The notes under the pieces are model-generated. The model was not told the DNA's origin and searched no databases. It saw only the letters and a program-made list of their open reading frames with translations. Of a stretch of DNA of 64,000 bases, positions 20,658 through 25,322 are shown in pieces. The DNA is from Candidatus Omnitrophota bacterium (GTDB taxonomy: Bacteria; Omnitrophota; Gorgyraeia; Zapsychrales; Fredricksoniimonadaceae): NCBI GenBank assembly GCA_030650275.1, contig JAUSEK010000023.1, positions 199,729 to 263,728 on the forward strand. Direction: 5' to 3'. The position numbers were made by a program, and so were the translations under genes. Each line of letters opens with the position of its first letter. Within the stretch, counting starts at the first letter, position 1.

Positions 20658-23600
20658 ATGTTTAAAAAATTCCTAAACCTTGTCCTGATTCTTACCTTTG
20701 TGGCCTCTTCGTTGGCGCCTGCCCGTTCTTATGCCGCACCCCTATCTTTACCTGAGCCGGGAACAATGGTCAATCTAAGCCCTGCCTTTGAGTCGGTCTT
20801 GATCAAAGGCCTTAAAGTCCATCCCGAGAATCCTTTTGCCTTTGATTTCATTGTAGATACCGGCCACACGGGATTGTCCGTAGAGACGAGGCATGCCTCG
20901 TCTCTACACAACGAATCCATGAAATTGATCAAATATTTCCTTACTGCCTTAACCATCCCCGAAAAAGACCTCTGGGTCAACCTGTCTCCCTATGAGAAGG
21001 ACAGGATGATCGCAGAGAACTTAGGCAAAACCCAAATGGGCCAGGACATGCTGGCCCAGGACTATATCCTCAAACAACTGACCGCATCTCTGATCTATCC
21101 TGAACGTGACTTAGGCAAGGCCTTCTGGGACAAGGTCTACCAAAAAGCCCAACAACTCTACGGCACTACTGAAATACCCGTCAACACCTTTAACAAGGTC
21201 TGGATCGTTGCAGACAAGGCCGATATCTTTGAACGCGGCAATGTGGCCTACATTGTAGGAGCACATCTTAAGGTGATGCTGGAGGAGGACTACACGGCTT
21301 TAAACAAGAACCAACAGGGATTGTCACCCCCGAAATCTTCTATCGGGGGTCCAGAGCATGGGACATCTTCTGGATTCCCGACAAAAACATTCGGGAATGA
21401 CAGCCATGCGATGGCCTCCCAGATCGTCCGTGAGGTCATCCTTCCCTCCATCGAACAAGAAGTCAACCAGGGCAAGAACTTTGCCCCTCTTCGCCAGATG
21501 TTCTACTCCATGATCCTGGCTTCCTGGTACAAGATGGCCCTTAAAGACACCATCCTAACCCAACTCTACGGTAACCAATCAAAGACCAAGGTCGGCATCA
21601 ACGCCAACAACCCCAATGACAAGGACAAGATTTTCGAACAATACCTGAAGGCCTACAAGAAGGGTGTGTTCAACTATATTAAGGAAGATGCTTCGGCTGC
21701 GCTCAGCACAGGTGCTTCGACTCCATCGTCCCGACAATCGTCGGGACTCGGTCGCTCAGCACAGGTGCCCAGGAAGTATTTTTCGGGGGGGCTGCAGATG
21801 GGCGTTGACCAAGCCATGCGGGTCGTGCACGACCTGCCTTTGGGGACATCATTACGTACAGGAAACACCTTTGATGTCGCGATCTTGGCCAATACTAAAT
21901 TGGCTGGTTCCGACGGGGCGATGGTGGCCAGGATACCAGTTAATTATACTAATACAAGAACACGTCAAGCAGTAGCTGGTTTGAAACTAACAGAGCTGGG
22001 CGTTGGCTATACACGTTTATCCAACGGAAATCCGACACCAGAGATGATTTTTACCGTGACCACTCCAAGCGGTCGAACAATTGAATTAACCGGAGCATCA
22101 CCGGCAGGAGAGTCTGAAGGAGTAAGAGCAGCCCTCTTTATGCTAGATGGGTCAGCAGCTGAAGACCTTACACTTATCAGAGATGGAGTTCTCAAAGCCG
22201 TTTACGGGGATATCTCTAGAGAAGATGCGGAAAATAGGATGCTAAAAGACATTTTTGGATTAGACAGGCAGCAAGCCCTTGTCCAGATGAAGGCTGACTT
22301 AAAAGGAAAAAATATTAAAGTCGCCCTTTGGATCGCTGAAAAAGTAATCCTTCCAAAGCTTAAAGACGCCATTGAATCAGGGAGGGTTGATCCAGCCATA
22401 AGATATCGCATGGATGACACTCAAAACAAAAGTATTGATGACTTTCTTATTAATCTCGACATTGAACTTTTTGGTCGTGAAGGATACAAGGGGGATCAAT
22501 TTTTAGCCCTTAGTGGAGGCAATGTAACTGCTTTGAGTAGGGTTGGGTACAGATTAGTAGCTACTTTAAACGGTGTTTCCAATGAAGAAGTTTTATCTCA
22601 TGGTTATAACCCAGATACAGGAGAAGTTGATCCTCATCAGGAGTTTGGCATCGTTCATCCCATGCCTGTTTTAATCGAAGGCGCCGCTCATGGAGGCTGG
22701 CTAACTGATTTTCAAGAGTTTATGTATTTAATGATGCTTAATGAACGAGAGAGAGCAATGAAAGGATTAGCTCCGAAGTTTGAAAGTCTTCTTAACAAAA
22801 TACAAGCAGTGACAGTGGCACTAACCGATATATTGAAGAAACAGGGAGAGTCCGTCGGTGTGGGTAGCGAAGCGGCCTTTATGTTAAGAAACGCAAATAG
22901 CAATTTAGATCCGATTCAATATCTTTTAGATGCGGCTCGAAAGAGTGGATTAGTAGTAGGAGAAGATTATGGTTTAAGCTTTGATTGGGCCACCAGTGAA
23001 ATTTATCACACCACTGCAGATGGATGGCCTGTGACCGGGTATTATCTATCACTTGAAGGCCGATTAGGAAAACTGCCTGAGATTATTATTCCTGGAGGAA
23101 CTGCGGAAGGTCAAGTGCGAACTCTGGGCCAATTGATAACAGTTCAGGGTAAAAAATATGCTGTATTATCGACGATAAATATGTTTGATTGGATTAAATA
23201 TTTAATTACAAGAACAAACAACCCTCTTCCCTTGGCTACACTGGAAGATATATTTGCTCAGTTTGATATCCAAGGAACCAGAATGTTGACAGGACTTTTA
23301 TATGAACTGAAAAGAACATCCGGATTTCCGTTTAGTTTTCAAAATAGTAATGGTGTAACGCAGGTCATGGATGACATGTGGACAACCCGTCGAGATATCA
23401 TGAGAGCTGCGATCAAGGGGACCCCTCTAGGAGAACCGTTAGTTATTGGAGAGGGGAGAGATCAAGAAGTATTAAATTTTCCTCAGGATACGTTCGACGG
23501 GGGGTTGGTAAAGCTCAATCAGGTTGGGCCGATAAAGTGGTTTATGCAAGCGGCCGCAGAGTTACGGGCACGAGGCCGTGATGTTGTTGATTCTCATAGG

Positions 23601-25322: not shown

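Follow-up and report, generated by a model that had tools for sequence, protein, structure and literature searches.

Two paralogous genes of a Candidatus Omnitrophota bacterium, both located in a 64,000-nucleotide (nt) stretch of contig JAUSEK010000023.1 (assembly GCA_030650275.1; this whole stretch is hereafter the window), encode modular proteins in which conserved end modules flank variable centres, and in both genes, the centres are markedly AT-richer than the ends and the surrounding DNA. The centres consist of cassettes that are replaced and re-combined between paralogs and close relatives and have histories separate from those of the end modules, which we denote handles. The AT-rich centres carry the cargo of a modular protein family, and the chances appear roughly even that they owe their composition to a regime that operates across that entire family; import of the cassettes from an AT-richer source is the main rival of this explanation, or a contributor to the contrast in this window.

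Third-position composition of the two paralogs

The two genes (hereafter, paralog 1 and paralog 2) are composed of the following parts, where GC3 is the GC fraction of third codon positions and aa denotes amino acids or their positions.

20658..25322, + strand: paralog 1, 1554 aa (open reading frame list and translation), with a signal-peptide-like N-terminus, N-module, two cassettes and C-module
20658..21806, + strand: N-module of paralog 1, aa 1-383, ending in ...PRKYFSGG; GC3 ~0.62
21912..21923, + strand: DGAM junction; GC3 0.60 in the 60 codons before it and 0.32 in the 60 codons after it
21933..23807, + strand: cassette A, divergent enolase-like, aa 426-1050; partial matches to Pfam Enolase_C and TIGR01060
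23805..23819, + strand: ADAAM junction, first arm of a 15-nt direct repeat around cassette B
23820..25031, + strand: cassette B, aa 1055-1458, a helical region followed by a predicted 2,3-bisphosphoglycerate-dependent phosphoglycerate mutase (dPGM) domain (aa 1236-1407); GC3 0.30-0.38
25029..25043, + strand: ADAAM junction, second arm of the 15-nt direct repeat; fitted breakpoint at nt 25008
25071..25322, + strand: C-module of paralog 1, DQAM...TPGGIDFN...LLGL; GC3 0.70; 77% identity to the family protein P0004, family alignment A4
30840..33440, + strand: paralog 2, 866 aa, with translation probably starting at the ATG at 30849
30840..31955, + strand: N-module of paralog 2; GC3 ~0.59; in-frame hairpin elements at 31491-31549 and 31770-31789
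32058..32096, + strand: DAAM and DRAM junctions of paralog 2, after the N-module
32097..32747, + strand: cassette 1 of paralog 2, without assigned function; GC3 ~0.43; common to locus L082
32748..33215, + strand: DSAM junction and cassette 2, with a putative response-regulator receiver at aa 649-759; GC3 0.22-0.37
33216..33440, + strand: DSAM junction and C-module of paralog 2, GGIDLN...; fitted breakpoint at nt 33258

The GC content of the whole window is 0.537, and that of the 5-kb stretches around both genes is 0.554-0.557. Sliding GC reaches its minimum zones, 0.39-0.45 over ~22000-24800 and 0.41-0.47 over ~32200-33200, within paralog 1 and paralog 2, respectively, and the total GC by part is 0.50 in the N-modules, 0.44 in the centres and 0.565 in the C-modules. 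An earlier examination of the bare letters of this DNA (hereafter, the sequence-only reading) had described the centres of the two genes as AT-richer than their ends and surroundings, with a GC content of 40-45%, and the sliding GC together with the GC3 steps described below bears this out; its figure of ~60% GC for the ends and the surrounding genome (actually 0.555) was too high. The low-GC tract that it delimited at 21900-24600 in paralog 1 is real but extends further, to a 3' limit at nt 25007; the string it quoted as an example is located at 22441-22477.

The compositional contrast lies almost wholly at third codon positions, the GC content of the first and second positions (GC1 and GC2) being nearly flat across the parts. 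In paralog 1, the GC3 is 0.62 in the N-module, 0.35 in the centre and 0.70 in the C-module; the respective values for paralog 2 are 0.59, 0.37 and 0.78, and the background GC3 is 0.72 (25 window genes, 10,326 codons). Among 324 background windows of 100 codons, the mean GC3 is 0.723, with a standard deviation (sd) of 0.064 and a minimum of 0.54. By Fisher's test, the GC3 of the centre differs from that of the N-module with p = 5e-20 in paralog 1 and 9e-10 in paralog 2, and from the background with p = 4e-115 and 6e-39, respectively.

The codon usage of the centres differs from that of the host in kind, with lower GC3 for 16 of the 18 amino acids. The codons AGA, ATA, TTA and GGA are up four- to nine-fold: AGA accounts for 26-36% of the Arg codons in the centres (4% in the host), ATA for 23-27% of the Ile codons (5%) and TTA for 24-34% of the Leu codons (9%), and the share of A-ending four-fold degenerate codons is 23-30%, compared to 6% in the background. 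The codon usage of the centres correlates negatively with that of the host (r = -0.40) and positively with that of genes from low-GC Omnitrophota (r = 0.78). Amino acid composition could be ruled out as the cause of the contrast given that GC1 and GC2 are unchanged and that the shift involves 16 of 18 amino acids; strand-specific deamination or hypermutation could be ruled out as well because A and T, and likewise C and G, are nearly balanced at the four-fold sites of the centres. The positive GC skew of the centres results from the loss of C-ending codons.

A three-segment GC3 model, optimal under the Bayesian information criterion, puts the breakpoints of paralog 1 at nt 21933 (aa 425) and nt 25008 (aa 1450) and those of paralog 2 at nt 32205 (aa 455) and nt 33258 (aa 806), positions that coincide with, or sit slightly past, the ends of the homology between the two paralogs. 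The sliding GC and codon usage checks that the sequence-only reading had proposed thus reveal significant steps at the module boundaries in both open reading frames; the lack of such steps, which would speak against a compositional break, is accordingly not what was found.

Handles, cassettes and junctions

Paralogs 1 and 2 have in common a signal-peptide-like start, an N-module of ~380 aa (48% identity) and a C-module of ~75 aa that starts at GGID[LF]N. This is the architecture of an entire family: a signal-peptide-like start, the N-module, at least one cassette, with D-x-A-M motifs as the joints, and the GGIDLN C-module. The N-module, which is recognizable by the motifs ...WVNLSPYE..., ...KVMLEEDY... 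and ...PRKYFSGG and has ~75 invariant columns in alignment A1, is represented in 7,888 clusters at 50% identity and is N-terminal in those listed; the C-module was found in 62 of the 70 complete genes of the fetched loci. The family appears to be confined to Omnitrophota: this is the label of the matches that come with an organism name and of most genome loci, some of the loci being labelled 'uncultured Planctomycetales'. The N-module has no match in Pfam, NCBIfam, PHROG, PADLOC or the PDB sequences and no structural match; the C-module has no match in Pfam or NCBIfam, and hence no domain of the Por_Secre_tail type (type IX secretion cargo), and its AlphaFold2 model is of low confidence (predicted TM-score, 0.24). 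In the library that was searched, the literature contained nothing specific on this family, on its motifs or on fusions of glycolytic enzymes in Omnitrophota. A compositional step inside one gene thus led to a family of thousands of clusters that has no Pfam or NCBIfam model, structural relative or located paper, and a sharp step at synonymous sites within an open reading frame can serve as a cheap, sequence-only marker of the points at which modular genes are cut and re-joined. The GC3 mosaic is also seen in a family member of 1562 aa that is present on two identical contigs (L083/L084) labelled as viral in IMG/VR.

Paralog 1 is a 100% match to the NCBI protein P0001 (1467 aa). The public model of P0001 starts at Met88 and lacks window positions 20658-20921, which encode the signal peptide and the beginning of the N-module, both common to all family members; P0001 is therefore 5'-truncated relative to the family.

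The cargo of paralog 1 appears to consist of enzymes. Cassette A, in which GC3 is 0.26-0.38 and climbs to ~0.5 over aa 900-1074, scores 24.8 against PF00113 (cut-off 21.5), but only over aa 668-786, and 47 against TIGR01060 (cut-off 300); motifs resembling the enolase active site are visible by eye. The domain of cassette B is, judging from a score above the curated cut-off and its motifs, a dPGM: it scores 108.3 bits against His_Phos_1 (PF00300; cut-off 21.7) and 92.6 against TIGR01258 (cut-off 81.7) and contains the sequences LLVRHGETTWN and SAHGNSLRAL, with the RHGE motif and the second His. Cassette 2 of paralog 2 matches Response_reg (PF00072) over the full profile length with 29.2 bits, just short of the gathering threshold of 30.2. 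Elsewhere in the family, the partner domains include PGK, PFK, hexokinase with PGI, adenylate kinase, PPDK, transaldolase and phosphoglucomutase as well as receivers, GGDEF domains and methyltransferases. Consecutive enzymes of glycolysis recur as cargo, namely, dPGM with the enolase-like region in paralog 1, and enolase with dPGM and PGK, or hexokinase with PGI, in other members. Such fusions to a signal peptide are unexpected for enzymes that are normally cytoplasmic and bear on the organisation or export of metabolism in ultra-small, host-dependent bacteria. The dPGM and enolase-like domains of paralog 1 correspond to the two steps leading to phosphoenolpyruvate (PEP), and a gene for ATP-dependent PEP carboxykinase (29060-30700) lies directly upstream of paralog 2.

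Comparison of family members demonstrates the exchange of cassettes that the sequence-only reading had suggested. Protein P0004 from the same genome is 71% identical to paralog 1 in the N-module, with long near-identical stretches, and 77% identical in the C-module, and the centres of the two are unrelated. Cassettes A and B of paralog 1 have homologues in two other proteins, at other positions and in other combinations: aa 426-1057 align at 44% identity with the last cassette of P0003, and aa 1045-1462 align at 55% with a middle cassette of P0002 that, like its counterpart, is bounded by DAAM motifs. The N-modules of these two pairs are 45-51% identical, and the homologous cassettes of P0002 and P0003 reside in genomes of 42-44% GC and have similar GC3.

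For the centre of paralog 2, the sole good homologue among 5.8e9 proteins is P0121, encoded at L082. The N part, cassette 1 and C-module of this gene are 81-85% identical to those of paralog 2 at the nucleotide level, and the receiver cassette between the D[SA]AM joints has been replaced (31% aa and 44% nt identity, with no blastn match). In cassette 1, the two genes are 81% identical at the nucleotide level, with a dS of 0.38; the ratio of nonsynonymous to synonymous substitution rates (dN/dS) is 0.45 in this cassette, 0.19 in the N-module and 0.29 in the C-module. The GC3 mosaic is nearly the same in paralog 2 and L082 (0.57 and 0.57 in the N-module, 0.43 and 0.42 in cassette 1, 0.73 and 0.69 in the C-module), that is, it has been kept across a dS of 0.38-0.64. 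Of the 62 family centres, no more than 10 resemble another centre, and for several of these, the matching gene is not the gene with the closest N-module. For 20 of 47 genes (4.1 expected), the most similar N-module belongs to another gene of the same genome, and the best partners of the N-module and the C-module are the same gene in 20 of 62.

The cassettes meet the handles and each other at D-x-A-M motifs. The D[AGS]AM variants occur 198 times in 120 family proteins, compared to 4.4 expected (a 45-fold excess), with a median spacing of 192 aa, and the edges of homology between family members fall on D-x-A-M motifs. These motifs are located at aa 419, 1051, 1459 and 1472 of paralog 1 and at aa 407, 416, 637 and 793 of paralog 2. 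Three of the four GC3 steps in the window lie within ~15 codons of such a motif: the 5' breakpoint of paralog 1 is 3 codons past the DGAM motif, and in windows of 60 codons, GC3 rises from 0.47 to 0.70 across the DAAM at nt 25032 of paralog 1 and from 0.25 to 0.73 across the DSAM at nt 33216 of paralog 2. The exception is the 5' step of paralog 2, which is fitted 40-50 codons past the DAAM/DRAM motifs (aa 407-419); at these motifs, GC3 falls gradually, from 0.53 to 0.47 and from 0.48 to 0.42.

Cassette B is bracketed by the 15-nt direct repeat GCCGACGCCGC[A/G]ATG (23805-23819 and 25029-25043). Inside the otherwise AT-rich cassettes, the DAAM joints favour the spelling GAC GCG GCG ATG, the second Ala being encoded by GCG in 60-74% of the joints, compared to 22% elsewhere in the centres. 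The spelling tends to be uniform within a gene (p = 0.024), as seen in L031, L062, L079 and L080, and a role of the joints as in-frame micro-homologies would fit this pattern; conservation at the nucleotide level around DxAM stops at the motif itself. A bolder, and in our assessment unlikely, proposition is that the family is an active system of in-frame cassette exchange, in which a Sec-exported N-handle and a C-handle would carry interchangeable cargo, and the DxAM joints would be both GAC GCG GCG ATG micro-homologies and sites of proteolytic release. If so, these genes would make up a combinatorial polyprotein system for the export of metabolic enzymes in a host-dependent nanobacterium; the roles of the handles and of DxAM in export, assembly and processing are ones that we only infer.

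Origin of the AT-richness

To place the two paralogs in the context of their family, we used 79 loci from many Omnitrophota metagenome-assembled genomes (MAGs), which contain 62 complete family genes, 60 of these with flanking genes in hosts of 36 to 53% GC. The GC3 of the centre is lower than that of the N-module in 97% of the 62 genes (mean difference, 0.112) and lower than that of the C-module in 92%; relative to the flanking genes, it is lower in 98% of the 60 genes (mean difference, 0.105; Wilcoxon test, 3e-11). Over the three comparisons, the mean differences are 0.11-0.13. The GC3 of the N-module is close to that of the flanking genes across the family, and the family-average GC3 drops right after aa 400. 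The dip is present in low-GC hosts (n = 18), with GC3 of 0.35 in the flanks and 0.29 in the centres, and the deficit is larger in high-GC hosts (n = 11), with 0.66 and 0.50, respectively. In 52% of 54 cases, the centre lies below every sampled flanking gene of its own genome; at synonymous sites, few coding sequences of a genome are as AT-rich as its cassettes, whatever the GC content of the host. Because the dip has the same direction in nearly all hosts, a one-off import cannot be its general cause; the donor would need to have been AT-richer than the recipient in almost every instance. Selection linked to site conservation (of the Akashi type) was ruled out as well: from the least to the most conserved columns of the N-module, GC3 changes from 0.46 to 0.50, and the Spearman correlation is not significant.

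The GC1 and GC2 of the two window centres conform to the host expectation and not to that of genes with a GC3 of 0.35, a comparison of low power given that it sets two segments against a gene-level sd of ~0.04; the family-wide version of this test is powerless, with regression slopes of 0.16 and 0.07. No close donor of the cassettes was detected: their nearest relatives are family members at 44-56% identity, the standalone dPGMs are at most 41% identical, and a metagenome scan for cassette A retrieved only the already known contig of P0003. Taken together, the family-wide dip, the host-like GC1 and GC2, and the lack of a donor lead to the interpretation of the AT-richness as a family-wide regime that is extreme in this window.

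Such a regime could arise as follows. The handles, of which each genome and its related strains would have numerous similar copies, might, like core genes, be held to the composition of the host, either through purifying selection or through homology-dependent recombination and GC-biased conversion. The cassettes, which are nearly unique and whose proteins evolve faster, would lack a homologous recombination partner, so that their synonymous sites would approach an AT-biased mutational equilibrium. The GC3 step would then be sharp because homology stops at the junction, and with the cassettes near such an equilibrium, the contrast would be unusually large in a 54%-GC host. Import of cassettes from lower-GC relatives possibly adds to the contrast here.

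Several observations weigh against an explanation by a family-wide regime. The 5' breakpoint of paralog 2 at aa 455 is remote from the nearest motif, so not every step falls on a junction. In P0002 (L080, 6001-13149), the first ~600 aa past the N-module have a GC3 of 0.49-0.55, above the 0.38-0.48 of the N-module; the rest of this centre is AT-rich (0.30-0.39), and the break between the two parts lacks a DAAM motif, so the family rule is not absolute. The centres in the window fall ~4 residual sd under the family regression (predicted GC3, 0.54; observed, 0.35-0.37), and an extra factor may therefore operate here. The similarity of their codon usage to that of low-GC Omnitrophota is equally expected from import, and low-GC genes of phage or defence type adjoin paralog 1 and a truncated third copy of the family gene (see below).

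The last three of these observations speak for the main rival, namely, un-ameliorated import. Under this scenario, the centres, or whole genes along with neighbours such as the Bro-N gene, were acquired horizontally, the donor being a member of the Omnitrophota with ~40-43% GC or else a pool of mobile elements, and were recombined into resident copies via the conserved ends, and their composition has not yet drifted to that of the host. The codon usage that is alien to the host also fits this possibility, as do the demonstrated replacement of cassettes (P0004 and L082), the residence of the homologous cassettes of P0002 and P0003 in AT-richer genomes, and the slope of 0.58 in the regression of N-module GC3 on the host, which suggests that equilibration of the family genes to their hosts is incomplete. 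However, the direction of the dip is the same in 98% of the genes, even in the AT-richest hosts, for which donors of still lower GC are scarce. Amelioration predicts that third positions converge first, which is at odds with the host-like GC1 and GC2 (weak as this evidence from two segments is); the donor search was negative; the mosaic of paralog 2 is older than its split from L082; and no tRNA or integrase marks an island edge, where direct repeats of only 15-16 nt were found, along with the adjacent Bro-N and ORF6N genes of phage or defence type. On this evidence, we regard import as a serious possibility that is nevertheless somewhat unlikely as the principal cause. The proposal in the sequence-only reading that the centres derive from a different sequence pool is supported only in part, given the recurrence of the dip across the family, the host-like GC1 and GC2, the mosaic shared with L082 and the missing donor.

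Selection on synonymous sites appears improbable. AT-ending codons or weakly structured mRNA might be favoured in the cargo, one conceivable purpose being paced translation that keeps fast-folding cytoplasmic enzymes export-competent behind a signal peptide. The confinement of the shift to third positions, with apparent catalytic motifs kept in both enzymes, its family-wide and module-bounded character, and the abundance of the host-rare codons AGA, ATA, TTA and CGA in the centres are all in line with this possibility. However, in low-GC hosts, AT-ending codons are common and the centres are AT-richer still, so that pacing by rare codons is inconsistent across the family, and the four-fold sites in the centre of paralog 1 (A/T, 0.30/0.33; C/G, 0.18/0.19) look neutral rather than like a selected set.

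A chimera, in which contigs from distinct populations were linked at the conserved modules during metagenome assembly, would account for breaks at repeated modules, some with near-identical stretches between N-modules of same-genome paralogs, in a sequence from a MAG, but is highly improbable because it requires four switches within 13 kb, each back to the same host background, with the reading frame and family architecture left intact, and because the mosaic of paralog 2 is seen in an independent assembly from another sample (L082) and the pattern in ~60 genes from many assemblies, including megabase-scale contigs.

Genomic surroundings and known systems

Apart from the two paralogs, the window contains the following related or adjacent elements.

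21318..21403, + strand: double-hairpin element resembling miniature inverted-repeat transposable elements or repetitive extragenic palindromes, ~85 nt, in frame, in a variable loop of the paralog 1 N-module
25426..26256, + strand: Bro-N domain gene (Pfam Bro-N; GC 0.44, GC3 0.46), phage/defence-island type
60467..60838, + strand: truncated third family copy, signal peptide and N-module aa 1-107, ending after KLIKYFLASL
61117..61656, + strand: ORF6N/anti-repressor-type gene (GC 0.41; Pfam ORF6N, phrogs anti-repressor families, PADLOC PDC-S05, 5e-60)

The Bro-N gene begins 100 nt downstream of paralog 1 and matches phrog_15286 and, over its full length, PADLOC PDC-S13 (E = 7e-124). Homologues of the Bro-N gene are also found near family genes at other loci: in L079, which shows the largest GC3 dip sampled, one with 71% identity is located downstream of the family gene at a distance of ~900 nt, and in L017, one with 46% identity lies directly upstream. 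Further along the window, the truncated third copy is followed by the ORF6N gene and then by recO (61744-62478); possibly, insertion of a mobile element has disrupted a family gene here.

The double-hairpin element has a second copy at 33893-33973, in the intergenic region after paralog 2 (83% identity between the copies); two occurrences of this pattern compare with 0.02 expected. In relatives such as P0004 and P0121, the same N-module loop contains similar 'repeat-peptide' insertions. The second variable loop of the paralog 1 N-module contains an exact 16-nt direct repeat, CGCTCAGCACAGGTGC, at 21700-21715 and 21753-21768, the copies being 53 nt apart and hence in different frames. At some distance from both paralogs, a tmRNA gene (10301-10708) is followed by a low-GC patch (0.42-0.43, 10800-11850) with an open reading frame for a RelE-like toxin (11518-11832); a tmRNA gene with such a patch is a typical integration hotspot.

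Accessory and ORFan genes are known to be AT-richer than core genes, and GC-biased gene conversion has been hypothesized to operate in bacteria. In both that contrast and the mosaic described here, synonymous sites are AT-richer in segments that are weakly selected or lack a partner for homologous recombination; the mosaic differs in that the contrast is found inside single open reading frames, with edges at or near a peptide motif, and is reproducible in one family. The family can therefore be viewed as a natural within-gene experiment on whether bacterial GC3 is upheld by recombination or selection, or is a memory of origin.

In the rhs genes of Escherichia coli and Salmonella, a GC-rich conserved core, with the motif PxxxxDPxGL, is followed by AT-rich, displaced C-terminal tips. 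As in Rhs and other polymorphic toxins, a conserved module of host-like or higher GC is joined here, within one open reading frame and at a short peptide motif, to an AT-richer variable segment that is replaced by recombination, and there are many paralogs per genome. In contrast to Rhs, both ends of the family proteins are conserved, the variable part is internal and can include several cassettes, and the joint is DxAM rather than PxxxxDPxGL; instead of toxins with immunity genes, the cargo consists of housekeeping-type enzymes and signalling domains. In the two paralogs, there is no match to the RHS/YD repeat models of Pfam or NCBIfam and no PADLOC match.

The layout also resembles that of the MARTX toxins, in which conserved N- and C-terminal regions surround recombining effector domains that are released at inter-domain sites. 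Both systems carry interchangeable internal cassettes between conserved termini, shuffle them by recombination between relatives, and have a short inter-cassette motif that possibly is a processing site, processing at DxAM being hypothetical. Unlike MARTX, the present family has a Sec-type N-terminal signal, and Pfam and NCBIfam searches identified no RTX repeats, cysteine protease domain (CPD) or type I secretion genes.

Within the same phylum, giant 'multi-enzyme metabolic cluster' proteins and Archaeovorins, of 10-147 thousand aa, have been described, with many transmembrane helices and C39, S8 or SecA domains; they are proposed to be cleaved into several products at points that are unknown (bioRxiv 10.64898/2026.06.07.730766; bioRxiv 10.1101/2023.11.21.568195). 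The members of the present family are similar to these giants as polypeptides that start with a signal peptide and string together enzymes of sugar metabolism, receivers, methyltransferases and PPDK. They differ in size, 0.7-3.5 thousand aa, and in having a defined N-module, C-module and DxAM joints, features that, along with the compositional mosaic, are not mentioned in the two preprints. The DxAM motifs thus provide candidate boundaries at which multi-enzyme proteins may be cut, the very information that is missing for the related giant proteins.

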